A DNA stretch of 64,000 nt from Candidatus Babeliales bacterium (GCA_050179755.1 JBFXEV010000001.1:677940-741939), one strand, 5' to 3'. Shown: positions 38,885 through 56,006, counted from the first letter of the stretch. A program made the numbers and translations. The notes: a model not told the origin generated them from the sequence alone.

Positions 38885-39253
38885 TTAGCCAACAGGTGGC
38901 ATATAATTATCAACAAATACGCTAAAACCAAGCGGTGCAGCTGGCTTCAATAAGATGTCTATTCTGGTAATATTACAGTCTGGTATCAATATTAATTCAT
39001 TGCCATTGCCAATACCAGTTAACTTTTTCACCGTTAATTTGGTGGGGCATGGAAAATTTAGAATACCCGTAGGTTGATGAGGGTGAAATCGTTGCACTAA
39101 TGTTTGGCCATTTTGTGCTTCAAATTTTATTTCTATTATGCCATCAGTAAAGTTTCGAAAGTTTCCCGGTTGAATTACAAATGCTTGTATTCCAGAGGTA
39201 GCTATTAAGGTTAAAGCTAGTGTTAGTGCATAGATTATTTTATTATTTTTCAT
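38885..39253 (-). CDS. Family B small secreted two-Cys protein (B1)
   Basis: AAGGAAA precedes ATG 39253 (MKNNKIIYALTLALTLIATSGIQA). NFPCPTKLTVKKLTGIGNGNELILIPDCNITRIDI aligns to B2. Confidence 0.7.
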   Translation of the reverse strand: MKNNKIIYALTLALTLIATSGIQAFVIQPGNFRNFTDGIIEIKFEAQNGQTLVQRFHPHQPTGILNFPCPTKLTVKKLTGIGNGNELILIPDCNITRIDILLKPAAPLGFSVFVDNYMPPVG

Positions 39254-39272
39254 GATTTTCCTTTTTAAGGTA

Positions 39273-39300
39273 ATCATCCACGAGTTTCCTCGTGGATGAT
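39273..39300 (-). other. Perfect 12-bp stem / 4-nt loop hairpin between A1 and B1
   Basis: atcatccacgag-tttc-ctcgtggatgat. No U-tract follows on the minus strand. Confidence 0.6.
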
Positions 39301-39322
39301 TTAATTTACTATTCTCTTTTAC

Positions 39323-39976
39323 TTAATTTGCTGCGTTAAGATCACCTTTAAGAGTTGTTCCAAAGAAATTAGGTATCTGGTATGTTCCATCATTTTGAAC
39401 ATTGATTTTTAAGTTACCAAAATCTTTTTTGAGCGGTGTGTAAATAGTCAAAGTTTCAGTCCATTGTTTTGCACGAGGGCCTTTTGCATATACTTTGATA
39501 GCTGTATGTCTTTTTGGATCAGCTGCTTTTGCATCTGTGGCTTCTTGTGCTACTTTTGCAGGCGTTCCTTCGGGGAACGATTCATCAAGACTAAATACGT
39601 AAAATAATATTTTATACGGTTCGTTTGGATACGGCCCTTTAGAGAAAGTTATTGCATACAATTTTTTGCCAACATTGGGAACAGGTAATATAATTTCTTT
39701 ATTCTCAGTGATGGTGCGAAAATTTGTAATATTCTTTTGTGCTTCGAGAGTATTATAATCTTCTCTATCACCAGCAGAACCCATTACTTTTGAGGCTGAG
39801 TGTCCTTTTGCTGTTATAACTTGCTTGCAACCAGTTGCGCCTTCGCCGCAAATTATCTGAACTGATTCTATATCTTCTTTTTTAATCTCAACTTGGTTAC
39901 TGTCTTGTTTTGCAAAACTCATCTGTATGAGAGCCAAGCAAGCAAGAGCGGCAAGGGTTGTTATTTTATTGTTCAT
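39323..39976 (-). CDS. Family A secreted protein (A1)
   Basis: AAGGAG precedes ATG 39976 (MNNKITTLAALACLALIQMSFA). GKKLYAITFSKGPYPNEPYKILFYVFSLDESFPEG aligns with A2-A5. Confidence 0.7.
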   Translation of the reverse strand: MNNKITTLAALACLALIQMSFAKQDSNQVEIKKEDIESVQIICGEGATGCKQVITAKGHSASKVMGSAGDREDYNTLEAQKNITNFRTITENKEIILPVPNVGKKLYAITFSKGPYPNEPYKILFYVFSLDESFPEGTPAKVAQEATDAKAADPKRHTAIKVYAKGPRAKQWTETLTIYTPLKKDFGNLKINVQNDGTYQIPNFFGTTLKGDLNAAN

Positions 39977-40103
39977 GAGAACTCCTTTTTTATTTAGTGG
40001 CATATTGTATCATAGTGATAAAGATTATCTATGTACAGATAAGGCCTAATATCTATCTTCTATCCTCATTGTAACAAAATTTGCCTCTGGAAATCAAGGG
40101 TTT

Positions 40104-40532
40104 TTAAGGTATTGCTTGGTCAAATATAAGCCCATTGGGGCCGTCCCCTACAATAAGATTAATGGCGTTACAATTTTGCCTGGTCCAAAAAGAGCTTATT
40201 TTGCCAGCTCCCGTACCGGTAAGCTTTTGTATTTTGATTTTGCGTGGGCAAAATGGAAAATTGGTGGTTCCTGATTCACCCTTGCCATAATATAATATGG
40301 TAGATGCTTCAAAGCCTTGCTGTATTCTATCATTCGCTTCTTGTTTGATTCTATCTAGTATTATGTCTGCAAAGGGATTTAGGCTTGAAATGCCACCAAG
40401 TGCTTGCTGTGATAATGCATCAAGTGATAATTGTATTTGGCCGTCTGTATTATTTTGCACATTAAGCGTGAGTGCTTCTATGCGTGTATACAATGCATTA
40501 CTGATTGTAAGAATTAGTATTATTTTTTTCAT
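40104..40532 (-). CDS. Family B small secreted two-Cys protein (B2)
   Basis: Leader MKKIILILTISNALYTRIEA. LNVQNNTDGQIQLSL; NFPFCPRKIKIQKLTGTGAGKISSFWTRQNCNAINLIV. Confidence 0.7.
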   Translation of the reverse strand: MKKIILILTISNALYTRIEALTLNVQNNTDGQIQLSLDALSQQALGGISSLNPFADIILDRIKQEANDRIQQGFEASTILYYGKGESGTTNFPFCPRKIKIQKLTGTGAGKISSFWTRQNCNAINLIVGDGPNGLIFDQAIP

Positions 40533-40542
40533 ATCTATCCCC

Positions 40543-41160
40543 CTATGTTATGGTATTTAAATCGTAAGTAATTGGCGCAGGTCTTACTAAGTTACCTGTG
40601 GTATCAGTATATGGTTGTGGATAATAAAATAATTTTGCTTCAGAATCAACAGTAATAAGTGGTTTAAGTGCGGTAATAGGTTTTTCATTAAATGAAGTTA
40701 ACAGGTATGTCCATTGATTTTGCTCTGGCAATTTATAATAAACTTTTAACACGCTTTTAATTTCTGGATGTTTTGTTTTTATATCAGCAATTTCTTGTGA
40801 GAATTTTGCATCTGATAACTCTGCAGGGATGTTATTAATATTAAATGCATAAAATAACAATTTAATTTGTTGATTGGCATACTGTTTTTTGGTTGGGGTG
40901 AAAGCTATTATTTTTTGCCCCGAAGCTGGCAATGTTAATTCTGTTTCTTTTGTTGTTTTAATGGTACTTAAATTTTGTACATCAATGTTGATCTCTTTTG
41001 GTGAGAATTTATCGCTTGCACTTCCAATAGTCACATCGCCTGCCACGCAATCTCCTTGTGCTCCTACGCAAAAGAGTATTTCTTTGCGAACGGCAAAACA
41101 AAAAGAGCAATTAAATACGGTGATAATGATAATTGCAAAAGATTGAAAAGTGTGCTTCAT
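40543..41160 (-). CDS. Family A secreted protein (A2)
   Basis: AAGGAAA precedes the ATG. GQKIIAFTPTKKQYANQQIKLLFYAFNINNIPAE...LKVYYKLPEQNQWTYLLTSF. Confidence 0.7.
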   Translation of the reverse strand: MKHTFQSFAIIIITVFNCSFCFAVRKEILFCVGAQGDCVAGDVTIGSASDKFSPKEINIDVQNLSTIKTTKETELTLPASGQKIIAFTPTKKQYANQQIKLLFYAFNINNIPAELSDAKFSQEIADIKTKHPEIKSVLKVYYKLPEQNQWTYLLTSFNEKPITALKPLITVDSEAKLFYYPQPYTDTTGNLVRPAPITYDLNTIT

Positions 41161-41177
41161 AATTTTTCCTTATCCTA

Positions 41178-41543
41178 TTACGACATATTAATGCCTTGTG
41201 AAGGATCAAATGGTGCTGCTTTTAGTACAGAAGATTCGTTAAATTTAATTGAGAACATATCGGCTTCTTTTGTAATAACGATTTCATAATTATCACAATT
41301 ATTGCCTGCCCACATTTGCTTACCATTGATGGTTATTTGTTTTAAACAGTCTTGCTCTTGTCCAAAATTATAATCGCGCGTTGTCTGTGGGTCTACGTGA
41401 AGTACAGCAAAATTTATTGCTGATTTAATTAAGCCAACTTTAAGCGGTTCTTTGGTTTGATTGAGAATTTTTATATAGTTTGTTGCATATGCATCATATG
41501 CTATGCATAAGAATGCTAAGAATACTACAGCTAATTTCTTCAT
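41178..41543 (-). CDS. Family B small secreted two-Cys protein (B3)
   Basis: ATG 41543 (MKKLAVVFLAFLCIAYDAYA) has AAGGAA upstream. The track's longer N-terminus overlaps the predicted promoter. IKILNQTKEPLKVGL; DCLKQITINGKQMWAGNNCDNYEIVI. Confidence 0.7.
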   Translation of the reverse strand: MKKLAVVFLAFLCIAYDAYATNYIKILNQTKEPLKVGLIKSAINFAVLHVDPQTTRDYNFGQEQDCLKQITINGKQMWAGNNCDNYEIVITKEADMFSIKFNESSVLKAAPFDPSQGINMS

Positions 41544-41595
41544 GATCTGGATTCCTTGTAAAATACCTACAATAGAGGCTCTAATCTCCACTTTT

Positions 41596-41625
41596 AGTAT
41601 AGCATTTTTAATTTCTATTATGCAA
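41596..41625 (-). promoter_or_regulatory. Sigma70-type promoter for B3 (TTGCAT-N18-TATACT)
   Basis: The minus strand reads TTGCATaatagaaattaaaaatgcTATACT. The same architecture recurs at 48420-48449 and 49297-49326. Confidence 0.6.
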
Positions 41626-41691
41626 TATTTTGCAGGGTTGGTAAGGGTTCTTGCAGGTTAAACAAAGATAGGCAAGGGGGGAGGGGGGGTT

Positions 41692-41722
41692 AAAGCCGCT
41701 CAGTCTAGTGATGAGCGGCTTT
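41692..41722 (-). terminator. Strong hairpin after the esterase-domain gene (putative terminator, weak U-tract)
   Basis: 11-bp stem aaagccgctca/tgagcggcttt with a 9-nt loop, 16 nt downstream of the stop at 41738. Confidence 0.5.
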
Positions 41723-41737
41723 ACTTATCAAACTCTA

Positions 41738-44170
41738 TTAGGCAGAAGGATTAGGAATTACTTCACATGGTTCAAGATCATATACACTAATTAATTCGCG
41801 TGTATCACCAAATGTTTCCACCCAAGCACCAATGGCACCTAAATCTAAAATCTTTGGTATATCAAGTTGCTGGCCTAATTCAAATGGTATATCGCTTGTG
41901 CGCACAATGGTGGTACTGTTTTCAATAATATCTAAATACACAAGACGCAGTTCATCTTCTACCGTTGCAATGGCAGCTGATTTGGTACCTTGATCAGCAT
42001 ATACTTGTGCGCCAATAAAGGTACTAAAATCTATTAAGCTGCTGGTGGTAATTTCATAGATAGGGTCAGTGCCACGATCTTCCAATTGTTTTGCTGATGC
42101 CAAAACGTTTCTAAATGATTTATTAAAATAAAATCCTGTAGAAGCCATTTCTTCTTTATAGAAAAAGTCATCAGTGCTTGTAGCAGTGTCAATAAAATTG
42201 ACAGGGCTTGTAGTGCGAATGCCGCCTGGTTCAAGAATTCCAGCTTGGTCAATATTAACCGGTTGCATGCGCCAATTATCAGGAAGCGTTGCAAGGTTGG
42301 CGCCTCCCAGCACGTTGCCAGTTGGAAAGTTAACTCTAAATGTATAATTATCGGCAGGCCCGAGCGCAAATACAGCAGCAGCATCTTCAAGGCCTGAGGC
42401 AATTTGATTATGCTCAAATACACCTTCTTGAATATCAAGTGTTATTTGCGTCAGATTACGCAAACCGCTCATTCCTTGATAGTTAGAACTATCAGGTGGC
42501 ACGATTGGTTGCCCTAGAAGGCCTGCACCAATGCCAAAAAAGCCTTGTCTTCCAATTTTAAATAATGCACCCGGCCCATTGATAATAATAGACGCTTGAA
42601 CACTGTTATCATTAAGCGAAGGATCTGCAAAGGCTCGTGCTTTGCTATATAAATTACCAATTTGAAAGCCACCGCCAGCTCTTGTCTCATCACCAATAAG
42701 TACTTTACCATTATCAAGTATTTGTAAATTTATATTGGTAGCTTCTACTTCTGGAGGCAGCGTTTCTATGCCAAGTAATGTTCCTTTTTCAACAAATAAT
42801 TGCGCATTTTCTTCAATAATAATGGTACCCGTGCCTATTATTTTAGATCGTACCACGTTAGGGTCTTCTCCATTTTGAGAAAATACGGCAGATAGCATTT
42901 GGAATACTGTTCTGTTGCGTGAACAATTTTCATTAACAATGCAATCTGTGTGTTTGCCATTATAAAGAAGATATTCATGATCTACTTGTTCGTTTGCAAG
43001 TTTTACCGAGAGCATGCGGGCGCCACGCGCATTAATGAGTTCTAAATTACCACCATCAAGAAAAAATGCTTGATGTTGTAACGTTTCAATAACATCTGGA
43101 TCGTTTGATACGAACCAAGGATCTTTTTCTCGCCAACGCTCAATAGCAGTTTGACTTAATACTAATGACACGGGAAATGTTATTGGTGTCCCGGGGATTT
43201 CTGTGCTGGCACCAATAAAAGGCCCCGGAGTAAATACCGGCGTGCCATCACCATTTACCTGGAAAGGAAGATCCACAAAGTAGGTATTTACGAATGGGTT
43301 TACAAATTCACCTCGAATAGCAGCTAAGTTTGGGCTAAGTGCACCTGATAATGAAAAAAGTAAAAAGGTATTAGGGCCATTGGTGGGAGCAATTCTGCCA
43401 GTATCTGGGCCCGAAGTTGGTATTTCTGGTTGCACAAGACTGTTTAGTGAAAATAGCGCCCCATCAAGAATGCCTGCAGTATTTGTATGTGCAAGATCGG
43501 TTGTTGCAATAGCCCAGAGCGGCGTGCCGCTTTCAGAGCCAAATCCAATAAATTTATCTGGGTGATTCATGGCCAGTAATGTAGAGCCATAGCCGCCCAT
43601 TGATTGGCCTGCAAGCGCTCGATACGCTCTATCTGCTTTTGTGCGGAAATTTGCATCAATAAAATTGACGGTATCTTCCACCAAAAAATCTTCAAAAAGT
43701 CCTGGCATTCTATTTACGCCATTTAATTCCGAATTAACATACCATGCTGAGGCATAGTTTCTCAAGCCATCTGGAGTTACACCATTAATTAAGCTCGCAT
43801 CAACCGATACTACAATGATAGGCGTAATTAATTTATTGTTAATTAAATCATCTAACACCAATTTATCGCCGCATACAAAAAAAGTATGATCACCTTCAAA
43901 GCCGGGCAAATAATAAACGACCGGGTAACGTTCTGTGCTTGTCTCATATCCTCTTGGTAGATAGACAATTGCCAAACGAACATTATCTCCTTCGGGTGCC
44001 AAAGGTGATGGTGGAACTTTGTCTAACGTGGGTATACCAACAAGCACTAGTAACCCCCCATTGCCAGGGTTGTTTATATCACCGCAAATGTTGGGGTCTA
44101 TTGGATATATTATTGCATGAAGATGCGTTGTCATCAGTAGGGCAAGCAAAAAAGTTATGATGTATTTCAT
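41738..44170 (-). CDS. Secreted esterase-domain protein (putative-esterase / esterase D-like fold) with a roughly 400-aa beta-rich C-terminal extension
   Basis: Leader MKYIITFLLALLMTTHLHA. VRLAIVYLPRGYETSTERYPVVYYLPGFEGDH. Nucleophile elbow AGQSMGGYGS (Ser codon at 43603..43601). The C-terminal half is Gly/Asn/Ile-rich and repeat-like. Confidence 0.7.
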   Translation of the reverse strand: MKYIITFLLALLMTTHLHAIIYPIDPNICGDINNPGNGGLLVLVGIPTLDKVPPSPLAPEGDNVRLAIVYLPRGYETSTERYPVVYYLPGFEGDHTFFVCGDKLVLDDLINNKLITPIIVVSVDASLINGVTPDGLRNYASAWYVNSELNGVNRMPGLFEDFLVEDTVNFIDANFRTKADRAYRALAGQSMGGYGSTLLAMNHPDKFIGFGSESGTPLWAIATTDLAHTNTAGILDGALFSLNSLVQPEIPTSGPDTGRIAPTNGPNTFLLFSLSGALSPNLAAIRGEFVNPFVNTYFVDLPFQVNGDGTPVFTPGPFIGASTEIPGTPITFPVSLVLSQTAIERWREKDPWFVSNDPDVIETLQHQAFFLDGGNLELINARGARMLSVKLANEQVDHEYLLYNGKHTDCIVNENCSRNRTVFQMLSAVFSQNGEDPNVVRSKIIGTGTIIIEENAQLFVEKGTLLGIETLPPEVEATNINLQILDNGKVLIGDETRAGGGFQIGNLYSKARAFADPSLNDNSVQASIIINGPGALFKIGRQGFFGIGAGLLGQPIVPPDSSNYQGMSGLRNLTQITLDIQEGVFEHNQIASGLEDAAAVFALGPADNYTFRVNFPTGNVLGGANLATLPDNWRMQPVNIDQAGILEPGGIRTTSPVNFIDTATSTDDFFYKEEMASTGFYFNKSFRNVLASAKQLEDRGTDPIYEITTSSLIDFSTFIGAQVYADQGTKSAAIATVEDELRLVYLDIIENSTTIVRTSDIPFELGQQLDIPKILDLGAIGAWVETFGDTRELISVYDLEPCEVIPNPSA

Positions 44171-44182
44171 TATGATCTCTTT

Positions 44183-45970
44183 TTATAGGAAAAACTCTAA
44201 GCCAATATACCAATCTGTATCTTGTGGTGTATTTTTACCACCAACCACGCCGCCAACGCTTGCAAAAATGCCAGCAGTAATGCAATCAAATTCATGCCGT
44301 AAACATATTTCACCGTAGAGTTTATGCGTGGTAACGTCTGTGTTAATTCTTAGATTGTTAGCATTAAGCAAGTTGGTGCCCGTTGGTATGCATGTGCACG
44401 CATTTGATTGTAAGCTAATAGAATCTCGTGATTTGATATACAGTTCATAACCAAAACGCATAAGGGCATAATCCTTGCAGGTGATAGGGCGTGCAATAGA
44501 AGCTTCTGCGTGGCCTAAGAAATAGTGCCAATTTACGTTGGCAGGAACGCCTGATCCAATGTTTTTGATCGTTGCTCCTTGCAGCGGTAATGCCACATTT
44601 TCTGCGCGTTTAAGTACTACAGAAAAGAGGGCATCTGCTTGTAGCAATAACCAATCATAATCATGCCAATAGGTTCGCGTGCCAATCATAATTTCTGGGT
44701 GTCCGTTATTGCCAAGTGATTGCAATGCGATCAGGCCTGGAGCCACTTGTGCGCCGGCCGTTGGTAAGCGCAATGCAACATTACCTTCTACAAAAGAACA
44801 CTGATTCCACCAATATTGGGTGAAAAACTGTGCATCAATATCACCAAGCCCGCCATGACTTCGCGAATTAAAATTAATGCCAGCTCTTTCAAAAAATGCA
44901 TTAATTTGTGTGGCTGGTGATCCGATTAAAAGATCAACGCGTTTTTTGATTATGCACGCGGGATCAACCAATTTAGTGACCGTGGGCGTTGATATAAAGG
45001 TTGGTTCAATCCACAATTGCTCCCGAATTTCTTCTTGTTCAGGAGTATTGGCGCCAAGTTCACCATAAGGTGTTGTGATGAGAAAGCGTGCGCGCCCGCC
45101 GATGGGCACAGGACTACCACTGCCTGGTAAGCCATCAAACGATTGTGCTTGGTCTATTGGTTGCGCAAAAGGGGGAGTTGGTGCAGTGCCCAAAGGTGGT
45201 TTAAAAACAGTAACTGGGTTTTGGCGTATTTGATTGAGCGTATTAAAGTTATTGGTGACATCAACATTTGCAATAGTTATAGGATATGTCACTGGATTTG
45301 CTGGTGGATTGCCTTTGAATCCTGTATCTACATAATCAACTAGCCGCACCATGAGGCCTGGAGGTGACCAGCTTTCAGGTAATTGATGCAAAAATTGTAA
45401 ACGATATGCAAATGTTTCCACCGGTGTGCTGTTAGTGCCTAAAAACTCTACTTGTTCGCGTACGTTAGCATCAAGAATTGCAGGGTCAATTTGGTTATTA
45501 ACAATCGGGCCTTGCGTTAAGCGCATGTTAAAATTGCGAAAGGGGATAGTTACACGGCCACCAACAACCACGTTGCAGCGCACCGCATGAGAACTTACTA
45601 ATCCAAGCACTACGCCGCGATCGGTATAGGTATAACGGGGTGAGAGTAGAGTTGAAAAAAGAATATTAATAGGTGACGTGGTTTGCGTTGCAAAAATATC
45701 ATTTACTGGAAAATCTGCTCTGTTAAATAATAATGCGGATAACGGGCTTTTATGTGTATCAGTAGTTTCAACATTAAGTGCGGTATCACATTTGCGCTGA
45801 TAATAACCTGCCCATGCATAAAATTGTGCTTGTTCACATAGAGGATTAAGTGGTTCAGTGTGCAGCCAATAACGTAATAAAGGAATGGGTGTTCTAAATT
45901 CACGCGCAGTAAGTGTTGTGCTTATGCATGTGGCAATTACTAAACTGTATATAAGATAGTTGTGCTTCAT
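44183..45970 (-). CDS. Putative outer-membrane beta-barrel protein (family not assignable)
   Basis: Leader MKHNYLIYSLVIATCISTTLTA. No hydrophobic helices. Aromatic/Gly-rich amphipathic segments. Aromatic C-terminus DWYIGLEFFL. Gaps of 12-15 nt to the flanking genes. Confidence 0.45.
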   Translation of the reverse strand: MKHNYLIYSLVIATCISTTLTAREFRTPIPLLRYWLHTEPLNPLCEQAQFYAWAGYYQRKCDTALNVETTDTHKSPLSALLFNRADFPVNDIFATQTTSPINILFSTLLSPRYTYTDRGVVLGLVSSHAVRCNVVVGGRVTIPFRNFNMRLTQGPIVNNQIDPAILDANVREQVEFLGTNSTPVETFAYRLQFLHQLPESWSPPGLMVRLVDYVDTGFKGNPPANPVTYPITIANVDVTNNFNTLNQIRQNPVTVFKPPLGTAPTPPFAQPIDQAQSFDGLPGSGSPVPIGGRARFLITTPYGELGANTPEQEEIREQLWIEPTFISTPTVTKLVDPACIIKKRVDLLIGSPATQINAFFERAGINFNSRSHGGLGDIDAQFFTQYWWNQCSFVEGNVALRLPTAGAQVAPGLIALQSLGNNGHPEIMIGTRTYWHDYDWLLLQADALFSVVLKRAENVALPLQGATIKNIGSGVPANVNWHYFLGHAEASIARPITCKDYALMRFGYELYIKSRDSISLQSNACTCIPTGTNLLNANNLRINTDVTTHKLYGEICLRHEFDCITAGIFASVGGVVGGKNTPQDTDWYIGLEFFL

Positions 45971-45985
45971 AATTTCTCTTTATGT

Positions 45986-46411
45986 TTAAGATTGCACGGG
46001 AATAAATAGGCTGTTGCCACTCATACGCAGAATTGGTTGTAAATCAGGAAATTGTAAAATAGCTCCCGGCAGAACTTGTAGTTGGGCATTACCATTAAAT
46101 GTGATATTGAGCCCAATTATCCAACGTGCCGATGTGCTAACAATAAAAGCGCCGCTAGTACTTGATGTCAAAGTAACAACATCGGTTTGCAGATCAAACC
46201 CTGGCCCTGCTTCAATGAGCAAGCACCCGATAGTATCGGTAATAACTATATCTTCATCAAGAATAATGGTACTGGTTTCATTAGGGCGAAATGGATTATC
46301 GCACGAATAGAGTTGATTAAATTCGCTTGCAGTTATAATAACACTAAGTGATTGGGTGCAATAAAGCGATAGTGCAATACATGTTGCACTCAAAAGGTAA
46401 TTGTTCATCAT
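45986..46411 (-). CDS. Small secreted beta-rich protein, first gene of the OMP/esterase operon (D)
   Basis: Leader MMNNYLLSATCIALSLYC. ITFNGNAQLQVLPGAILQF resembles IIEENAQLFVEKGTLLGIE in the esterase protein's C-terminal half. Confidence 0.6.
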   Translation of the reverse strand: MMNNYLLSATCIALSLYCTQSLSVIITASEFNQLYSCDNPFRPNETSTIILDEDIVITDTIGCLLIEAGPGFDLQTDVVTLTSSTSGAFIVSTSARWIIGLNITFNGNAQLQVLPGAILQFPDLQPILRMSGNSLFIPVQS

Positions 46412-46485
46412 ATGCTCTCTTTAAGTTATATATAAAATTTATATACAACTTAAGTTCAGCAGATGATGAACAACTTGTCAAGCGC
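46399..46485 (-). promoter_or_regulatory. Duplicated promoter/leader module, copy 1 (TTGACA-N17-TGcTGAACT plus start-codon-occluding inverted repeat)
   Basis: The 87-bp block is alignable to 51275-51360, and its distal 36 bp match that copy at 35 positions. -35 at 46476-46481, -10 at 46453-46458. Arms at 46462-46476 and 46399-46413. Confidence 0.6.
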
Positions 46486-47109: not shown

Positions 47110-47110
47110 A

Positions 47111-48449: not shown

Positions 48450-48455
48450 TAGTTT

Positions 48456-48496
48456 AAAAAAACATACTGCCCCAAGTGATTTCTCTCTTGGGGCAG
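48456..48496 (-). terminator. Rho-independent terminator after A5
   Basis: 10-bp stem ctgccccaag/cttggggcag, followed on the minus strand by U7. Confidence 0.8.
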
Positions 48497-48522
48497 TGTT
48501 ATAAACTACGTTTTGATTAAGA

Positions 48523-49230
48523 TTACTGTGCTGTTTTAGGGAGTTTTTGAATCTCATCAAGTGTCATACCAAGTTCAAGTTGAAGTGGTGGAGCACTTAC
48601 TTTTTTGGTTGTGCCATCTGTTTGTGGCGCAAGGAACGATGGAAGATATGCAATTACTTTACCACCTGGTTGAATTACAAGTCTGATACCTTTACCTTGT
48701 GCTAAATCTTGAGGCGTATCACTACTTCCGTCAACATAGAATGGCGTCCAAAGGCCTTGTTCATCAGGTCCTTGGCGGAACGCACCAGTTACTGTCTTTA
48801 AATCAGCAAAGTTAATTTTTGGATTTGCTTTAGCTTTTTCTATTGCTTCTTTCATAATAGAAGGAGCATCTGCCGGCAACGGCTGGCTTAAATCAATTGT
48901 ATATAACGCTGCTTTGATTTGTTGGTTGGCATAGCTGCCTGTAGTTGGCGTAAATGAAAATATTTTTTTACCGGTTGCAGGAATAGCGATTGTTTTTTGA
49001 GTCATTCTGGTAATAACGCCAAATGATTCAACGGGAACGCCTACTGTGTTGAGCGCTTCAGGTTGGAACGCACCACCCATAGTAATATCACCAGTTATAC
49101 AACCACCAACTACGTAACCTACGCAGTTAAGAATTGTTTTTACGGTTGTATCACGCCCTGAAGCGTAACCTAACTGTGAAAACGTTAAGCAACCTACGAT
49201 TGCTAACATGATTGAAGTTTTGTTATTCAT
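48523..49230 (-). CDS. Family A secreted protein (A5), possible lipoprotein
   Basis: MNNKTSIMLAIVGC contains a lipobox-like IVGC. GKKIFSFTPTTGSYANQQIKAALYTIDLSQPLPADAPSIMKEAIEKAKANP. Confidence 0.7.
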   Translation of the reverse strand: MNNKTSIMLAIVGCLTFSQLGYASGRDTTVKTILNCVGYVVGGCITGDITMGGAFQPEALNTVGVPVESFGVITRMTQKTIAIPATGKKIFSFTPTTGSYANQQIKAALYTIDLSQPLPADAPSIMKEAIEKAKANPKINFADLKTVTGAFRQGPDEQGLWTPFYVDGSSDTPQDLAQGKGIRLVIQPGGKVIAYLPSFLAPQTDGTTKKVSAPPLQLELGMTLDEIQKLPKTAQ

Positions 49231-49296
49231 GATAACACTCCTTTATTATTAGTTATACTTTTTTTTGTTCTACTGTATAAGTATCTTTACACTTTT

Positions 49297-49326
49297 AGTT
49301 TACCATTATTAATTTCTAATATGCAA
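49297..49326 (-). promoter_or_regulatory. Sigma70-type promoter for A5 (TTGCAT-N18-TAAACT)
   Basis: The minus strand reads TTGCATattagaaattaataatggTAAACT. Confidence 0.55.
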
Positions 49327-49423
49327 TAGTTTTTCCTTGGGCGGGAAAGGCAGCGCAGGCTTGTTTAGAGGTATTCAGGTTAAAATCAAGGTAAGGCAGG
49401 AGGGTGGTTTTCAAGAATATATA

Positions 49424-49453
49424 TTGACTTTTTTAATACAGATTGAGTATTAT
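49424..49453 (+). promoter_or_regulatory. Sigma70-type promoter for B4 (TTGACT-N18-TATTAT)
   Basis: ttgact at 49424-49429 and tattat at 49448-49453. AAGGAG lies before ATG 49499. Confidence 0.6.
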
Positions 49454-49498
49454 TAAATTAGGTAGATCCTTAAAAAAAGCTAGTACTAAAGGAGTTTT

Positions 49499-49891
49499 AT
49501 GATGAAAAAACGTATAATTGCGCTAGCATTGTTAGTGGCGAGTATTTCTGGTTCACAAATGATCGCTATACAGATAAAAAATAATCTTAGGTATGGTGTT
49601 GCGGTGAGTGACGCTGATGGTGCCCGAATAGCAAATATTTGCACCATGGACACGGTAAATTGTGAAATTAGAGGTAAAGTTACACGATCTGGCGTTGAGC
49701 TTACCCGTGATCAAATGCGCGTGCGTCTCAATGTAAATGGTATTGATATTTATCCTGGTGAAACCAAAGAAGTGGGTTTTTGGGGTGATGGTTCAAGATT
49801 AACTGCATATTATGATACTACCGTGTTGCAATTTACAGCGCCAGTGCAAAATTCTTTAGAGTTCCCACGCGATTTTAAATTAGCCAGATAA
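49499..49891 (+). CDS. Family B-like small secreted protein (B4, divergent)
   Basis: Leader MMKKRIIALALLVASISGSQMIA. IQIKNNLRYGVAVS start strand. Two Cys (ICTMDTVNC). Confidence 0.6.
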   Translation: MMKKRIIALALLVASISGSQMIAIQIKNNLRYGVAVSDADGARIANICTMDTVNCEIRGKVTRSGVELTRDQMRVRLNVNGIDIYPGETKEVGFWGDGSRLTAYYDTTVLQFTAPVQNSLEFPRDFKLAR

Positions 49892-51244
49892 ATTAATTTC
49901 ATTTCCTGACGTATCAAAATATTTGGCATAGGCATACGAAATATAGAGTATATTGCGTTGCCACTGCACGGCTTTAAATCGAGCTGAAAGACACATTAAT
50001 TTGGGGATATTGGAATTTTTGCACCATATATCATTGGTTATTGCAAGTATGGTTGACCCTTTTTCATACCTATCGTCTGGCTTATCATTAAAAAAAAGTT
50101 CCGAACAAATATACGGTATAAATGAAACTCCTTCAAGAATATGGAGCATTGGTCGCTCATTTGTGGATGGAGTTATGCCCGGATAAGTACTGAAAAATAA
50201 CTTTTCAAACAATTTAAAATTATAAATTTCTGGCAATGCTTCAGTAAGGAGCATTGCATGCCGCTTATCAAAGATTTCTTTTAATTTCCCATTAAAAAAC
50301 CAATGTAACGTGTTGCGGTAAGAAGGGCCATCCCAGCGAAATGAGCCAAGTACAATATGTAGTGGCCGCAGCAAATCTTCTTCTGACCACATTGCGCAAA
50401 GATCAGGGTCTTTGCTTAAATGATCACAAAAAATGGATGACTCAGGCATAATAATAAGCTTGGCATCAGGTTGTAATACCGCTACATGGAAGAATAATTC
50501 TTGCGCCAATTTTGCTTGTTTTGTTAAATCAACTTGGCTTGAAAGTTTGCTTGGCAGGTAGGCTATTTCTTTGAGCCATGCCGGTTTTATCATCGGTGCG
50601 AGCGGAATTACCAAACTAATAAGCCAGGGGGCTGCGAATGCTATCACCCAAAAAAAAGCATAGAGAGATTTTCTTATATACAAGTAAACGAGTGATCCTG
50701 AAAAACTTATAAGTAATAAGATAAGTATTGTTTTGCCAAGATAAGGCAAAAGTGCAAGTAAGCGCGGTTCCTCTGCAAGAACAAGTACGGGATTAAAGAA
50801 AAAATGCCCTTCACAGCGCCCAAAGAGTATAAAGCAATAATGTTCCATAAAAAGAATAAAAAGTGTGTACGTACTAACCCATAAAAAGAGTCGCTGCCCT
50901 ACGCTGCGTAATGAAAAAAAGTTAATTATGGTATTATTGAGCAAAAACCAGCATGCCGCATAAAAAGCAGCGGTGGAGATGAGTACTAATGCGGGAGCAA
51001 GGCGTGCAAGAATTGAGCCTTTTGCAAAGTTATCAATACCTGTAATAACGCCAGCCAGGTGAAGAGTGAAGGTAATAATTCCCCATAGAAAACCACGTTT
51101 AAACGAGAGATTGTTATATACTGCTATATATAAAAGGGGTGCAGCGAAAATAAAAACCAAGGGCCAAAAATAGCTACTCAAAAGTAATGGCAGCGCATAG
51201 CAAATTGCAGAAAGAATAAAGAGTAGCCAATGAGCGAGTATCAT
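49880..51244 (-). CDS. lnt: Apolipoprotein N-acyltransferase
   Basis: Polytopic N-terminal half, then a CN-hydrolase triad context: IIMPESS (Glu), FDKRHAMLLTEALP (Lys), IPYICSELFF (Cys). Confidence 0.8.
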   Translation of the reverse strand: MILAHWLLFILSAICYALPLLLSSYFWPLVFIFAAPLLYIAVYNNLSFKRGFLWGIITFTLHLAGVITGIDNFAKGSILARLAPALVLISTAAFYAACWFLLNNTIINFFSLRSVGQRLFLWVSTYTLFILFMEHYCFILFGRCEGHFFFNPVLVLAEEPRLLALLPYLGKTILILLLISFSGSLVYLYIRKSLYAFFWVIAFAAPWLISLVIPLAPMIKPAWLKEIAYLPSKLSSQVDLTKQAKLAQELFFHVAVLQPDAKLIIMPESSIFCDHLSKDPDLCAMWSEEDLLRPLHIVLGSFRWDGPSYRNTLHWFFNGKLKEIFDKRHAMLLTEALPEIYNFKLFEKLFFSTYPGITPSTNERPMLHILEGVSFIPYICSELFFNDKPDDRYEKGSTILAITNDIWCKNSNIPKLMCLSARFKAVQWQRNILYISYAYAKYFDTSGNEINLSG

Positions 51245-51291
51245 TGTATGCCACCAAAAAGCAGCATTAAATAGAAGTTGTTCATCATCAT
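51241..51291 (-). other. 16-codon upstream ORF (MMMNNFYLMLLFGGIQ*) whose TGA overlaps the lnt ATG (ATGA)
   Basis: AAGGAAA precedes the triple ATG. The N-terminus is homologous to the start of gene D (MMNNYLL). Confidence 0.4.
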
Positions 51292-51360
51292 GCTTTCCTT
51301 ACAATATACAAATAAGTATATATTTTAAGTTCAGCAGACGATGAACAACTTGTCAAGCGC
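51275..51360 (-). promoter_or_regulatory. Duplicated promoter/leader module, copy 2
   Basis: -35 TTGACA at 51351-51356 and -10 TGcTGAACT at 51328-51333. 15-bp inverted-repeat arms at 51337-51351 and 51275-51289, with one G-U pair. Confidence 0.6.
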
Positions 51361-51396
51361 GGTCATATAGCCGCAGTGGGAATTTTGATCACCCGT

Positions 51397-51903
51397 TTAT
51401 GAAGACGGTTGCTTTCCTTTAGATGGCATCTTGCCAGCAGTAACACTTTCAACAGGTTCAGTTTTTGCAGTAAGTGATTCTCCACCTTCAAAGTTAATTG
51501 AAGGTTTACCATCTGCTCTTCGCGTTAAATTAATAGTTTGAGTGGTTCCTGCAGCTACTTTATTTTCTTTAACAGCGCGTACAAAATCTGGTTCGCCTGC
51601 AAATTTTACCATAAGATCTTTTAATGGCATACCTTGGCGTGCATCGCCACCTTCCCAAGAATAATCTGTTGATTTACCGGGTTCAAGAGTACGAGTTTTC
51701 CCTTTAGGGTCATCCAAATTGCCTTCCATATCAAACGCAAGGTTTCCTTTACTGTTTTTACTTATAAAATCATAGCCTTCCGCTGTGATATATATTTCTG
51801 CATTTACGGCAGCATTATTTTTAACTGTAAAATCAGCTAATATATGGTTGCAGCTTAACGTCATAAGAGCTGCGATAGCCATGTTGAGTGATAAACGTTT
51901 CAT
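51397..51903 (-). CDS. Family C secreted protein (C2)
   Basis: Leader MKRLSLNMAIAALMTLSCNHILA. FTVKNNAAVNAEIYITAEGYDFISKNSKGNLAFD. Confidence 0.7.
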   Translation of the reverse strand: MKRLSLNMAIAALMTLSCNHILADFTVKNNAAVNAEIYITAEGYDFISKNSKGNLAFDMEGNLDDPKGKTRTLEPGKSTDYSWEGGDARQGMPLKDLMVKFAGEPDFVRAVKENKVAAGTTQTINLTRRADGKPSINFEGGESLTAKTEPVESVTAGKMPSKGKQPSS

Positions 51904-51928
51904 AGTAAACTCCTTTAAGTCTTAAGTT

Positions 51929-52594
51929 TTATTTTTGTGTTTCGCCTGAGCGTACTTGGCGGTAATATTCAAGCTTTCTGGCAAGTGAATCACCTGGATC
52001 TGGTTCTGAAAATCCTTCTTTCATCGTATCGCCAAAATCTCTAAATCCGGCAGAAACTGTTGTTACGTTTTCTGCTTCATATTTTTGCCAGCCTTCAAGT
52101 ATTACTGAGGCCTTTTTGCTTGATGCAAAATCAGTAGCTTTTTTACCGCCAACAATAGTGAGTGCACCTTTGCCGTGGAGTACTGTAGCTATTTTTAAAA
52201 GCTCATTTTGTGCTGCATAGAAAAGCGCAGTCATGCCGGCATTGTTTGGCAAATTTAGCAATTCTGTGGCAGCGTCTTCTTTAGGTAGTTTTGTAAGCAA
52301 TCGGTTGATAATATCGGTGATATATTGCGTCGCTTGTGCTTCTCCATAAAGAGCTACCGCCTGTGGAAATCCCTTAATGGCTGCAGTAATGAGCGTATTG
52401 CCGTTAGCATCACGGGCAACATATAAATCTTCGGTGCTAATCAAAAGAGATTTTGCTTGATTGAGCAAATTTACATAATCACCTTTCTCTGCAAAGGCAA
52501 AAAACTTTGTAGCTTCATCGGGCGAGCCAAATGCGCCAAAAGATGAAAGCAGCATCATGCTTGCTCCAAGATAGGTTAAAAATTTAGAATTCAT
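51929..52594 (-). CDS. Secreted ankyrin-like repeat protein (paralog of 53284..53832)
   Basis: ARDANGNTLITAAIKGFPQAVALYGEAQATQYITDIINRLL; NNAGMTALFYAAQNELLKIATVLHGKGA. Confidence 0.7.
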   Translation of the reverse strand: MNSKFLTYLGASMMLLSSFGAFGSPDEATKFFAFAEKGDYVNLLNQAKSLLISTEDLYVARDANGNTLITAAIKGFPQAVALYGEAQATQYITDIINRLLTKLPKEDAATELLNLPNNAGMTALFYAAQNELLKIATVLHGKGALTIVGGKKATDFASSKKASVILEGWQKYEAENVTTVSAGFRDFGDTMKEGFSEPDPGDSLARKLEYYRQVRSGETQK

Positions 52595-52656
52595 TGGTTT
52601 TCTCCTGTTTTTTTACTATTTTTTACCCTCATAGGGCATGCTTCTATATCACCAAT

Positions 52657-52686
52657 AGTATATCAATTTTGTCATTCAAATAGCAA
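52657..52686 (-). promoter_or_regulatory. Promoter TTGCTA-N18-TATACT
   Basis: The minus strand reads TTGCTAtttgaatgacaaaattgaTATACT. The attcaaatagcaat core is shared with 53882-53911. Confidence 0.55.
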
Positions 52687-52747
52687 TATTATAGTATTTT
52701 TTTACTTCAAGTGTGCAGGTTAGGGTTGAGGAGGGCTTTTTTTTGGA

Positions 52748-53287
52748 TTATTTGTAATTGCTTTCAATCAAGGTAAACCCCTCAGTTTCTTCCTTCTCTT
52801 TAAGAAACCGTGCCAATTGTTCAAACTTACGCTTTTCTTTGGGGTTTTGTAAGCGCGATGCTATATCTTGTGCCCAAGCGCTTGCTGTTTTGCCTAAACT
52901 GTCTTTAAGGGTATAGTCTACGTGCGTCTTTGTATCTAAGTAGGTAATAACCGATTGTAGGCCAAAAAGTGCTGCCATCATAAGAGCAGTTTGCTGCGCA
53001 ACATTTTGAGCATTCACATTAATGCCTTTTAGGGGAATCAATTCTTTTATAAGCGATAGTGCTTGCTCTTCAGTAATAATATCAGTGCCAACCGCTTCAA
53101 GTACTGCGTGGAGTGGCGTGTTGCCTTTGCCGTCGCGCAATGTTGCTAAATTTTTTGATTGACTGATTAGCTTACGAGCCTGTGCAACATCTCCTTTATA
53201 AAGTGCTTGAAATAACTCAGTTGACCCACGTAGCATGTTTGGCGCGCAGATAATGCTTGTGCATATGATTATTGTTTGTAATTTCAT
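52748..53287 (-). CDS. Secreted ankyrin-repeat protein
   Basis: RDGKGNTPLHAVLEA; NVAQQTALMMAALFGLQSVITYLD. The start overlaps the upstream stop (ATGA). Confidence 0.7.
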   Translation of the reverse strand: MKLQTIIICTSIICAPNMLRGSTELFQALYKGDVAQARKLISQSKNLATLRDGKGNTPLHAVLEAVGTDIITEEQALSLIKELIPLKGINVNAQNVAQQTALMMAALFGLQSVITYLDTKTHVDYTLKDSLGKTASAWAQDIASRLQNPKEKRKFEQLARFLKEKEETEGFTLIESNYK

Positions 53288-53832
53288 TTTTTATCCCCCA
53301 CTAATACCCAGTCGTCTTCCAGATTCTCCCATTGCGCTAAAATTGTTTTAAGTTGCGCATTTTTTGCATAGGAAGATGCTTTTTTACCATCTTTTGTAAC
53401 TGAGAAGGCTCCTTTATCATGCAAAAGAACCGCTACTTTTAAAAGCCCCAATTGAGTTGCCATAAAAAGAGGCGGCATGCCCGCTTTGGTTGCCTCATTT
53501 ACCAGTTTAACTGCGTCTGCTTTATCAATCCTTAAAAGGAGCATGGAAAGTACGTCATAGAGTAATTGTGAGGCTTTTGGCTCGCCATATTTTGCTACCG
53601 CTAATTTGTAACCTTGTAAAGCAGCACTAATAAGCGTATTGCCATTATCGCGCGCGTTCATTATTTCTTGAGCAGTTAATTTGCGATTTTTAGTAAGATC
53701 GAGAAGCACTTGGTAAAAGCCTTTTTCAGAGGCTTGAAAGAATTTTTTAACATCTTCGTTTGAACCTAAAAGGGCAAGGGGTAAGCATAAAAAACTGCTT
53801 ACGGCGATAGTCTTTAAGATAATGGCTTTCAT
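53284..53832 (-). CDS. Secreted ankyrin-like repeat protein
   Basis: CAGGAG precedes ATG 53832 (MKAIILKTIAVSSFLCLPLALLGS). The predicted promoter lies inside the track's longer N-terminus. Confidence 0.7.
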   Translation of the reverse strand: MKAIILKTIAVSSFLCLPLALLGSNEDVKKFFQASEKGFYQVLLDLTKNRKLTAQEIMNARDNGNTLISAALQGYKLAVAKYGEPKASQLLYDVLSMLLLRIDKADAVKLVNEATKAGMPPLFMATQLGLLKVAVLLHDKGAFSVTKDGKKASSYAKNAQLKTILAQWENLEDDWVLVGDKK

Positions 53833-53881
53833 GAGAGCTCCTGTTTTTTGGCTTTTAATCTTGTGTAGCCTTGTTAATTTC

Positions 53882-53911
53882 AGTGTACCAATTTGGCTAT
53901 TCAAATAGCAA
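53882..53911 (-). promoter_or_regulatory. Promoter TTGCTA-N18-TACACT
   Basis: The minus strand reads TTGCTAtttgaatagccaaattggTACACT. Confidence 0.55.
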
Positions 53912-54014
53912 TAAAGGCAATGCTTGAATGGTGAATTAAGTCATTCATTGTTTTGTAATGCGTGAATTTGTTATAATTATGGTAGAAAGATGCCGTAAAT
54001 TGAGGAATAAGTTT

Positions 54015-54434
54015 ATGAAGCTACAGAGAATAACGTCTTGTTTTTTTTTATTAATCTTAGTGCTTTATGCACGCGATCAGTATGCTCAAACCAGTACTGT
54101 TAATACCATTATTATTAATAATGAGTCTGGTATGGATATTACCGTGTTACTTAATTATGAAGATAATACGTCGGTTACCCAATTTGTGATGAAGGGCGAA
54201 AAGAAAACATTTTATGCCCAAGATCAGTGCCTTTATGGCATTTCACTCTATAGTGAGCGTTGGCGTAATGTTACCGATATAGATTTTGACGATAAGCTTA
54301 TTATTCCGGTAACATGGAACAGGTGCCAGGGTTGGATCTTTACAATAAAAAAACGCAGCGATGGCACCGTGCACATAGCACGTAAGCAAAGTGTTCGCGC
54401 GCAAAGAGAACAACAGACTAAGGCCGGCACTTAA
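54015..54434 (+). CDS. Family B small secreted two-Cys protein (B6)
   Basis: GAGGA precedes ATG 54015 (MKLQRITSCFFLLILVLYA). IIINNESGMDITVLL; DQCLYGISLYS...WNRCQGWIFTI. Confidence 0.65.
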   Translation: MKLQRITSCFFLLILVLYARDQYAQTSTVNTIIINNESGMDITVLLNYEDNTSVTQFVMKGEKKTFYAQDQCLYGISLYSERWRNVTDIDFDDKLIIPVTWNRCQGWIFTIKKRSDGTVHIARKQSVRAQREQQTKAGT

Positions 54435-55452
54435 TATACCATCCTTGAGCAATAATATCCTGCACTTTTTCAAATTCGTGTTTAAATGCATGATCACATT
54501 CAGTCAGTCGTTTGAGCGTAGTGCCTTGCAATACTAACGGATTAATGCCCCTAAACTTGCCAATCATGTGAATATCGTAATCGTCTTTGGTGCTTAAACA
54601 AATGATATCCATAAAGTTTTTTAACTTATGCATATGCCCCTTTATTTCAGGGTCATTGCAGCTGGTGAGCTTCTGCCAGACTACGTCATCAATAGAAAAA
54701 TGTATGTCATGTTTATTAATGAGATCTATTGCGCATGCGCGATGCAGTGCTTGCGCTGCCCATTTATAGGTAATAAGGCCAGATGCTGACGCAAATTCAT
54801 TTTTGGTTAATGATAAAGCGCAATCTGCAAAAAGGCGTGCTGCATGTACGTCATCAAAATACCATTGATCATTTTTAGTTTTAAGATGAGATAATAGATA
54901 GGTAATATCTTCTTTTGTTATAATATTTTTTAATTGACCACCAAAAAGCACATATTCAAGCCGATCAGCACAAATTTCGGGAATATCTTGTTCAAGAAGT
55001 TTAAATTCCCCACTTTTATGAATAATATCTGCAATTTCATAGCCATATTTATGGAGCAGAGCTTTTAGTTCCGTTTGCTCAATAAACCAATGGTGAATGC
55101 TATCTTGATATGAATCGTTGTGTGACGCAGTGTATAAAAAGTCACCCACATGCGAGAACACGGTATGTGAAACATCATGGAGTAGCCCTGCAATTTGTTC
55201 TTCAAGGGGAGCGCCATACAATCGAAGTAGTACCATAACTCCCACTGAATGTGTGTAGCGTGAATATGGTGGTAAATTTTTTATAAATGGCGTAATGCCA
55301 TATTGATTAATATGCTCAAGGCGCTTCATTGAAGGTGAATGTAATAACTCAATGAGAACTGGTTCGGTAATGGTTACGGTGCCATAGAGTGTTGTGACTG
55401 TACTAGCGTTTGGAAGCTTGTTTTGTAAGCTTTGGGGTTTAATTGTAATCAT
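54418..55452 (-). CDS. HD-domain metal-dependent phosphohydrolase
   Basis: RYTHSVGVMVLL...AGLLHDVSHTVFSH. AGGAGG precedes ATG 55452; the track start 55488 lacks a Shine-Dalgarno sequence. Confidence 0.75.
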   Translation of the reverse strand: MITIKPQSLQNKLPNASTVTTLYGTVTITEPVLIELLHSPSMKRLEHINQYGITPFIKNLPPYSRYTHSVGVMVLLRLYGAPLEEQIAGLLHDVSHTVFSHVGDFLYTASHNDSYQDSIHHWFIEQTELKALLHKYGYEIADIIHKSGEFKLLEQDIPEICADRLEYVLFGGQLKNIITKEDITYLLSHLKTKNDQWYFDDVHAARLFADCALSLTKNEFASASGLITYKWAAQALHRACAIDLINKHDIHFSIDDVVWQKLTSCNDPEIKGHMHKLKNFMDIICLSTKDDYDIHMIGKFRGINPLVLQGTTLKRLTECDHAFKHEFEKVQDIIAQGWYIKCRP

Positions 55453-55637
55453 ATCCCCTCCTGGTGTTATTGATATCTTCTTTTTCATTTTTAGTGTAGT
55501 TGATTTGCTATGTTTTAAGGAATAGTTTGCAGCGCATCATTGTTTTGTTAATGCAATTAGTTTAAATGTTGACTTTATTTTATAATTTTAATTACAATTA
55601 TAATGAGTAGATGTTTTGTGTTTAAAAAGGAACGATT

Positions 55638-56006
55638 ATGAAGAATATTTTTTTTGCCATGCTTTCTGTGCTTTTAACTAGTTTTAGTTTAAACCTTATG
55701 GCAGCGGCAGTTGATTTTCATTTTGAAAACAATACGGACGAAGCAGTAACATTAGGAGCGGTTTTTAGTGGTAAACAAGGCCCAAAAAGTCGCACCATAA
55801 TGCTTGCTGCGCATGAATCAAAAAAAGAAGTTTTTGAAGGCTGTTTGCAAGAAGTGCGTACCGAGCCTAACGCAGATTTGGCGATCAAGGGCATGGAGCA
55901 ACAAACGATATGGAAGCCAAGTAAAAAATATGGTTGCAAATCAATGACCACGAGCGTGCATCAAGCAACTAATGGTGCGCTTGAGCTTGTTTTTGTGTAT
56001 CAATAA
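55638..56006 (+). CDS. Family B small secreted two-Cys protein (B5)
   Basis: AAGGAA precedes the ATG. Leader MKNIFFAMLSVLLTSFSLNLMAA. FHFENNTDEAVTLGA; GCLQEVRTEP...YGCKSMTTSV. Confidence 0.65.
   Translation: MKNIFFAMLSVLLTSFSLNLMAAAVDFHFENNTDEAVTLGAVFSGKQGPKSRTIMLAAHESKKEVFEGCLQEVRTEPNADLAIKGMEQQTIWKPSKKYGCKSMTTSVHQATNGALELVFVYQ

Follow-up and report, generated by a model that had tools for sequence, protein, structure and literature searches.

What is encoded by a 17-kb block of small, unnamed, leader-bearing open reading frames (ORFs) in a Dependentiae genome, and around what is it organized? The question was raised by positions 38885-56006 of a 64,000-nucleotide stretch (the window; JBFXEV010000001.1:677940-741939), which came from a 1.53-Mb contig of a Candidatus Babeliales (Dependentiae) metagenome-assembled genome (MAG; GCA_050179755.1) with every protein annotated as 'hypothetical', and in which an earlier note had sorted 13 ORFs into paralog families A (five members), B (six) and C (two). 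The block was interpreted, with modest confidence, as a vertically inherited Babeliales envelope/secretome locus in which exported paralogs diversified around a four-gene backbone, with these paralogs probably having a binding or structural role in the envelope or at the host interface.

Leader-bearing genes and the conserved backbone

All 13 ORFs were present where the earlier note had placed them (its 'starts' being the lower coordinates), 10 on the minus strand and three on the plus strand, and all 13 were flagged as signal-peptide-like by a simple home-made rule for n-region, h-region and c-region (cleavage site), a heuristic and not SignalP. By this rule, leaders were found in 20 of the 25 ORFs within 37762-56006 versus 11 of the window's 38 other ORFs (Fisher p = 9e-5). 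Families A, B and C gave no significant profile match in Pfam, NCBIfam, PHROGs or PDB sequences, and limited pattern scans did not find them in cultured Dependentiae; the families were genuinely unannotated and narrow in distribution. The picture first drawn of this region, a dense block of leader-bearing, lineage-restricted paralogs belonging to no family that could be named, was upheld by the 13 leader calls and by these negative searches.

The best clue to the locus, skipped by the earlier note, was a conserved backbone running through the island and composed of a divergent apolipoprotein N-acyltransferase (Lnt) and the proteins X141, X595 and X810. A tight, co-directional minus-strand block ran from 49230 to 38885 in the order A5, A4, A3, C1, X141, X595, X810, B3, A2, B2, A1, and B1, its intergenic gaps often measuring 1-27 nt. 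Among the related loci compared (L numbers), the trio X141–X595–X810 was contiguous in L003, L008, and L010 to L017 (the L016 contig ended inside the X810 gene), and L018 had X595–X810 only, with no X141 detected; X595 lay directly upstream of X810 in every locus with full-length X810 where both could be scored. Lnt adjoined the trio or family A arrays in L004 (two copies), L011, L012, L013, and L017, and family A genes occurred within 10 kb of the trio in L010, L011 (seven copies), L012 (four), L013 (three), L015 (five), and L017 (two). No B1/B2-, B3- or C-type genes were detected in L011 to L018, L012 having B4- and B5-like genes only. For every ORF except B6, syntenic orthologues of matching length were found in independent assemblies. 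Two further observations were made on these loci: (i) L017 (CAZGZQ010000002.1), a MAG labelled 'uncultured Pseudomonadota', had the full X141–X595–X810–Lnt–family A module otherwise seen in Babeliales/Dependentiae only, and it may be mislabelled or mis-binned; and (ii) L011:10651-11559, between the A array and the trio, encoded a 302-aa leader-bearing protein ending in ..WLSWGFNF, a classical outer-membrane beta-signal.

The island was flanked by transaldolase (Tal)/HD hydrolase and ParA, as in L012, a related 1.87-Mb Babeliales chromosome with the gene order Tal, HD, B5, AnkSP, X141, X595, X810, Lnt, B4, four A genes, ParA, ... PrimPol, and LeuRS; the window and L012 had the same content between the same flanks, with one block transposed. 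Synteny with L010 extended to ParA, its small partner and the primase-polymerase PrimPol, and synteny with L012 to ParA and PrimPol; these neighbours of the island are therefore chromosomal and not a recent insertion. The GC content of the island equalled that of the flanks and the window contained no tRNA genes; thus, nothing pointed to a mobile island. The counts from a promoter and terminator scan were no different from those of shuffled sequences and were uninformative.

The genes of the locus diverged at very different rates. Identities to L010 and L012, respectively, were 89% and 92% for ParA, 83% and 79% for LeuRS, 77% and 78% for PrimPol, and 50-63% and 52-56% for the trio; Lnt was not found in L010 and had 59% identity to L012. 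The corresponding values were 35-49% and ~29% for family A and 38-42% for B in L010 (29% for B4 and 46% for B5 in L012), and C had 34-45% identity to L010 and was not found in L012. In a neighbour-joining tree of family A, the five window paralogs each paired with their own orthologue in close relatives, and L012, L013, and L004 carried recent tandem duplicates, a pattern that indicates birth-and-death evolution of a fast-diverging family. Between X810 and B3, L010 (7522-9426) harbored extra leader-bearing ORFans absent from the window, among them a pair of paralogs (165 and 155 aa) and a protein of 297 aa that is duplicated internally, and the content of the island is therefore subject to turnover.

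X810 (41738-44170, minus strand), predicted to be exported, began with a serine hydrolase domain of the CE1/esterase-D type, whereas its C-terminal domain of ~450 aa had no match. Its Pfam match was PF00756 (E 1e-19), residues 60-225 scoring 71.5 bits against a gathering cut-off of 22; the GxSxG nucleophile elbow read GQSMGG and was invariant in five orthologues, and the closest PDB relatives were CE1 feruloyl esterases (E 2e-21). All full-length X810 relatives came from Babeliales/Dependentiae MAGs, two of which bear the labels 'uncultured Pseudomonadota' and 'uncultured bacterium', respectively; other phyla had the esterase domain only. X595 (44183-45970, minus strand), a 595-aa protein with a leader and the C-terminus ..GLEFFL, was represented by an alignment of 11 orthologues (23-74% identity), in which the C-terminus showed alternating hydrophobic and aromatic residues; this resembles an outer-membrane beta-signal and makes X595 a putative outer-membrane protein. 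X595 had no match in Pfam, NCBIfam or PDB, either as a single sequence or as an 11-sequence profile, and these profile searches gave no Omp85/TpsB or autotransporter features (POTRA, Bac_surface_Ag/ShlB, autotransporter beta-domain, or usher); a genome-collection scan with X595 patterns returned nothing, as did hhalign comparison of A, B, and C with X595 and X810. X141 (45986-46411, minus strand), a small predicted exported protein of 141 aa lying 15 nt upstream of X595, had no match in family searches. In hhalign, its C-terminal motif (ITFNGNAQLQVLPGAIL) was similar to the region where the C-terminal domain of X810 begins (P 1.3e-3, 22 columns), and X141 and X810 may share a repeat unit.

The fourth backbone gene (49880-51244, minus strand) encoded a 454-aa membrane protein identified as a divergent Lnt through its family profile against PDB Lnt. 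A seven-sequence profile matched E. coli Lnt over its full length, through both the 8-TM domain and the nitrilase-like domain (positions 19-434 versus 27-443, E 8e-10), and aligned the Glu/Lys/Cys catalytic motifs PES/DKxH/IC[SY]E as IIMPES, DKRH, and ICSE, whereas the Pfam and NCBIfam models and single-sequence phmmer missed it. The gene was in tandem duplicate in L004.

With a lipoprotein acyltransferase and an esterase in the backbone, the small proteins might be housekeeping factors of periplasmic or outer-membrane biogenesis engaged in lipid or lipoprotein handling or acylation, A and B/C serving as carriers or substrates and not being directed at a host. Consistent with this are the adjacency of Lnt to the trio or to A arrays in five related loci, the placement of X810 among esterase-D/CE1/Ag85-type alpha/beta hydrolases, some of which are acyltransferases, and the outer-membrane lipoprotein TssJ as the closest structural neighbour of B2 (see below). 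The small proteins, however, lacked conserved lipoboxes (the B2 leader had no Cys, and an IVGC-like string occurred among them only in A5 and its orthologue), diverged far faster than housekeeping genes, and varied in copy number and content among close relatives, and this alternative is considered rather unlikely.

Family A

Family A comprised five minus-strand paralogs: (i) A1 (39323-40003; annotated as 217 aa with the start at 39976), with an L008 orthologue of 48% identity; (ii) A2 (40543-41160), separated by 17 nt from B3 on its upstream side and by 10 nt from B2 on its downstream side; (iii) A3 (47111-47704), with an orthologue in L010 and without the Cys loop; (iv) A4 (47732-48370), used for the structure model; and (v) A5 (48523-49230), with an L004 orthologue of 54% identity. 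In an all-against-all BLAST comparison, 10 of 10 pairs were significant (E 8e-6 to 1e-37), and the motif quoted for the family in the earlier note was seen in the alignment, which confirmed A as a true family. When 1.84 billion representative proteins were searched exhaustively (HMMER) with a profile of family A, 97 representatives (clusters) were recovered at E <= 1e-3 and 47 at E <= 1e-10, mostly of 160-260 aa (range 102-402), 89 of the 97 having a hydrophobic N-terminus. The ten representatives that were looked up were all unnamed or 'hypothetical' and all came from metagenomes or SRA assemblies. The alignment was too variable to derive search patterns from it.

The residues invariant in family A were G, W, P, and T, and they did not make up anything like a catalytic motif. 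The AlphaFold model of A4 had a predicted template modelling score (pTM) of 0.73 and gave no Foldseek match in PDB or BFVD; going by this model, the family A domain appears to be alpha/beta, matched by no known fold, with an optional disulfide-loop N-terminus. A LolA-like fold was considered and rejected, being absent from the Foldseek list. The A2 orthologue at L010:10001-10717 had a duplicated N-terminal Cys-loop module (INECIGAVTGDCVAGN.. then INWCVGSVTGDCVGGD..), and the module was absent from A3; it is therefore optional and mobile within the family.

Families B and C

The six B proteins, all predicted to be exported, were more heterogeneous than the A proteins and had the following properties: (i) B1 (38885-39277, minus strand; annotated as 122 aa with the start at 39253), ~100 aa when mature, belonged to a B1/B2 subfamily and had relatives P0010 and P0012; (ii) B2 (40104-40532, minus strand), a two-Cys protein (C75 and C101 in mature numbering) predicted to fold as a beta-sandwich interrupted by a helical insertion, had orthologues P0011 and P0117; (iii) B3 (41178-41591, minus strand; likely start M17 at 41543), a two-Cys protein and distant member of the B1/B2 group, had orthologues in L003, L008, and L010 with 42-60% identity; (iv) B4 (49499-49891, plus strand) formed a separate subfamily with a family A-type Cys loop (NICxxxxxNC) and had paralogs in L004 (three copies) and L012; (v) B5 (54015-54434, plus strand), a two-Cys protein forming its own subfamily, had an L012 orthologue of 46% identity at the same position; and (vi) B6 (55638-56006, plus strand) was a two-Cys singleton with the opening motif FHFENNT and no homologue in any fetched locus. 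Family C consisted of C1 (46486-47151, minus strand; annotated as 207 aa with the start at 47109), in which a two-Cys domain was followed by a Pro/Lys-rich tail, and its paralog C2 (51397-51903, minus strand), which lacked both Cys. Beyond the source MAG, B1/B2, B3, and C were found in no more than a few contigs derived from SRA data, pattern scans of Joint Genome Institute (JGI) metagenomes for C and B3 returning nothing.

The grouping of the six B proteins into one family did not survive all-versus-all clustering and profile hidden Markov models (HMMs), which A and C withstood. C1 and C2 matched at E 8e-28, making family C a true one. B1–B2 was the only B pair detectable pairwise (E 3e-5), with the common motifs N..N.TDG.I and NFPxCPxK..KLTGxGxG, and a B1/B2 HMM recovered none of B3, B4, B5, and B6. 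Profile-profile comparison (hhalign) was then used, with homologues from related contigs added and reversed profiles as controls (best control P 0.037, mostly 0.2-0.9). The B1/B2 profile matched B3 at P 4e-4 over 70 co-linear columns, and the combined B1/B2/B3 profile matched C at P 2.8e-3 over 75 co-linear columns, with the opening N-N-T strand, a PGxST-type strand, and both Cys strands aligned; B3 matched B5 at P 2.8e-3 in a local similarity of 21 columns only, and B1/B2 matched B6 at P 0.037, equal to the best control. B4 and its paralogs had the family A N-terminal Cys loop (NICxxxxxNCxVG), A4 matching the B4-like protein of L004 at E 2e-7 and B4 itself at E 1e-3, which marks B4 as an A-related hybrid. 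The idea that B and C form one superfamily accordingly holds in part: B1, B2, B3, C1, and C2 may form a loose superfamily, weakly supported by profiles, with B5 and B6 as possible outliers that are only hinted at and with B4 excluded.

The opening motif [LIVFYM]x[LIVFYMT]xN[NQ][TSA] occurred eight times in the 17,944 residues of window ORFs, five of these at a mature N-terminus (B2, B3, B6, C1, and C2), and its presence in all five is more than a chance resemblance. Its invariant Asn had Ser/Thr at +2 in ~15 of 19 B1/B2/B3/C sequences (NNT, NQT, NDS, NAT, ...), including those at 40104-40532, 41178-41591, and 46486-47151; the resulting N-x-S/T sequon could be a structural or a glycosylation site. 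The two Cys covaried in family C, both being absent from C2 and its orthologue and both present in C1-type proteins. C1-type C-termini (window 46486-46700, L003:705-1307, and L010:1913-2536) had a Pro/Lys/Glu-rich low-complexity tail, ..PPEPLPEG..KPKLTPEQQAEAAKNAPPPTTKE.., and the C2-type tail was shorter. In P0007 (L004:9927-10766), a protein of 279 aa, the family C domain occurs twice in tandem, as a natural duplication. A relationship of C2 to phage tail tubes was rejected, the match in Pfam being weak (E 0.0086) and PHROGs giving nothing, and so was a thaumatin-like assignment, for which there were a similar opening strand, low Foldseek matches (probability ~0.5, TM 0.30), and no Pfam match.

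Could these similarities be products of chance or composition, with some of the ORFs not being genes at all? In favor of this are the AT-richness of the genome, the short length and beta-rich character of the proteins, and the weak P-values of the B5, B6, and C profiles; against it stand the length-matched syntenic orthologues of every ORF but B6, the 47 family A representatives at E <= 1e-10, and the clearly weaker reversed-profile controls. Such an explanation is considered hardly credible, and it was largely refuted for A, B1 to B5, and C, B6 still being without a homologue.

The B2 AlphaFold model, built from a 12-sequence B1/B2/B3 alignment (pTM 0.64), comprised an eight-strand sandwich core (predicted local distance difference test score 85-94) with a low-confidence helical insertion after strand 2, the two Cys lying directly before strands 78-83 and 103-109. 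Its best Foldseek match was TssJ1 (3zhn; E 2.7e-3, probability 0.99, template modelling score [TM] 0.45), followed by 4a1r, 3rx9, and 5amu, none at E <= 1e-3; the structural neighbours comprised TssJ1, SciN, IglE, domain 4 of cholesterol-dependent cytolysins (CDC), CBM41, and transthyretin-like proteins. The AlphaFold and Foldseek check proposed earlier thus gave no match for A4 and a marginal TssJ-like sandwich for B2, which, on the strength of the model, may be a generic transthyretin/TssJ-like beta-sandwich binding module.

Arrangement of A and B genes

The alternating order B3–A2–B2–A1–B1 reported by the earlier note was correct, with gaps of 17 nt (B3–A2) and 10 nt (A2–B2), and it was the basis on which functional A/B pairing had been proposed. 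Cognate pairs of the effector/inhibitor or toxin/immunity type would agree with this alternation, with the B3–A2–B2 unit kept in L008 and L010, and with the interleaving of B4-type and A genes in L004 and L012. The unit, however, was kept only in these closest relatives; A3, A4, and A5 had no B partner, and neither did the arrays of two to seven A copies in distant genomes (L011, L013, L015, and L017), so that A/B pairing is not general. In addition, the family A invariants offered no catalytic-looking motif, both partners carried leaders, and there was no toxin or immunity family match. The order and spacing thus stand, and pairing as their meaning is weak; a role as cognate pairs is regarded as quite improbable.

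A multi-subunit surface appendage or coat (pilus, fibre, or S-layer-like) would read the same arrangement differently, with X595 as the assembly pore in the outer membrane, A and B/C as major and minor subunits, and X810/X141 as tip or anchor. It would account for the operon-like block with its many short gaps, for the antiquity of the five window A paralogs, each kept as an orthologue in close relatives as distinct subunits would be, for disulfide-containing B/C beta-sandwiches of pilin-like size, and for the linkage of family A to X595 across distant Babeliales. It is opposed by several results: none of the genes scanned matched a PapD-like chaperone, an usher, a sortase, or a type IV pilin, X595 had no Omp85, usher, or TpsB signature, the A copy number varied from 2 to 7 with B/C absent from most lineages, and the A model had no pilin or Ig match. 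An appendage of this kind is therefore judged unlikely. Comparable doubt attaches to the proposal that Lnt, X141, X595, and X810 constitute a Babeliales-specific envelope machine that exports, acylates, or anchors A and B/C on the surface; if true, it would be a previously undescribed surface-display/secretion system, with cargo (family A possibly having a new fold) for attachment to, or manipulation of, the protist host.

Proposed interpretation: a vertically inherited envelope/secretome locus

According to the favored interpretation, a diversifying envelope/secretome locus, the 17-kb stretch would be the variable part of a vertically inherited chromosomal locus for exported/envelope proteins, with a backbone of divergent Lnt, X141, X595 (with its outer-membrane-barrel-like C-terminus), and the exported serine esterase X810. 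The small Sec-exported proteins around this backbone would have arisen by tandem duplication followed by quick divergence, giving proteins of several types: family A, a loose superfamily of disulfide-stapled beta-sandwich proteins of ~100 aa, the B4 hybrid, and leader-bearing ankyrin-like proteins. After Sec export, leader cleavage, and oxidative folding in the periplasm, the folded proteins would act as binding or structural proteins at the envelope or the host interface.

From the observed ORFs, families, synteny, fast divergence, heuristically called leaders, and modelled folds, we infer export, disulfides, final location, and any host-directed role. Several points weigh against this interpretation. 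A, B, C, X141, and X595 yielded no functional motif or domain, and the structural match of B2 was marginal and generic. What ties the paralogs to the backbone is synteny alone, which small genomes with little rearrangement can retain even where genes are not functionally coupled. As for Lnt, it may be no more than the housekeeping copy.

As obligate symbionts or pathogens of protists, Dependentiae are widespread. To our knowledge, almost nothing is known of their interaction with the host. The locus offers a defined and fairly widespread family A (97 representative clusters), a narrow candidate beta-sandwich superfamily, and a backbone in which lipoprotein acylation is linked with an exported esterase and with a putative protein of the outer membrane. 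Should backbone and paralogs cooperate, the envelope biology of the phylum and its recognition of hosts would become accessible through a tractable locus; otherwise, it would be one more case of an ORFan-rich Dependentiae secretome.

Other genes of the window

Three leader-bearing ankyrin-like genes were located on the minus strand at 51929-52594, 52748-53287, and 53284-53904, with Pfam Ank matches and orthologues in L004 and L012. The first and third were paralogs of each other and represented a fourth paralog family in the island, absent from the earlier note. A RelB-like antitoxin/ParE toxin pair (35841-36375, plus strand), ParA with a small 106-aa partner (36472-37650, minus strand), and the LigD-type PrimPol (34944-35816, plus strand) directly flanked the island. 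Farther away, two leader-bearing WD40 beta-propeller proteins were encoded on the plus strand at 4628-6202 and 6329-7966, one of them with a Skp1/POZ-like segment; WD40 and Skp1/POZ-like domains are eukaryote-like and typical for host-associated bacteria.

Comparison with known systems

The comparison was extended to the known systems that the locus most resembled. TssJ, SciN, and IglE, lipoproteins of type VI secretion systems (T6SS), resembled the predicted sandwich core of B2 at the fold level only, in a marginal and generic match. B2 had no sequence similarity to TssJ; its leader MKKIILILTISNALYTRIEA contained no Cys, the B1 and B3 leaders had no canonical L-[AS]-[GA]-C lipobox, and the island genes scanned with Pfam and NCBIfam included no T6SS family match (TssM/TssL etc.). 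B2 is not a TssJ because it has neither a lipobox nor T6SS neighbours.

Chaperone-usher pilus operons had in common with the island the clustering of small exported beta-rich two-Cys proteins beside a large outer-membrane-like protein. They differed in that the family A model was not a two-Ig-domain structure and gave no PapD-like Foldseek match; moreover, A1 to A5, X595, and X810 had no match to a PapD-like chaperone (PF00345/PF02753) or an usher (PF00577) at E <= 1, and no chaperone, usher, fimbrial/pilin, or sortase families were detected in the genes scanned with Pfam and NCBIfam.

The enzymes of the backbone also had known counterparts. E. coli Lnt (5vrg and 5n6h) aligned with the 454-aa protein over the full length including the Glu/Lys/Cys motifs, but the window Lnt was too divergent for Pfam, NCBIfam, or single-sequence phmmer, and it was duplicated in L004. 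The N-terminus of X810 shared PF00756 and GxSxG with the CE1 feruloyl esterase, esterase D, and antigen 85 hydrolases, but X810 had the extra C-terminal ~450 aa, and its full architecture was confined to Babeliales/Dependentiae.

A further system of this kind is the secretome of Chromulinavorax destructans, a Dependentiae isolate, in which 44% of coding sequences are reported to have signal peptides, this set is enriched in ORFans and ankyrin proteins, and export is presumed to proceed via Sec and outer-membrane vesicles (PMC6561590). The dense signal-peptide ORFans of the window are therefore less surprising than they would otherwise be. The two share the phylum, Sec-leader ORFans, and ankyrin-repeat proteins; they differ in that the window ORFans can be sorted into distinct paralog families connected with a conserved backbone of four genes, whereas neither a comparable locus nor such families are described in the available portion of PMC6561590. 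What the window adds to the signal-peptide ORFan secretome already known there is a concrete, conserved locus with new families in a poorly understood phylum.

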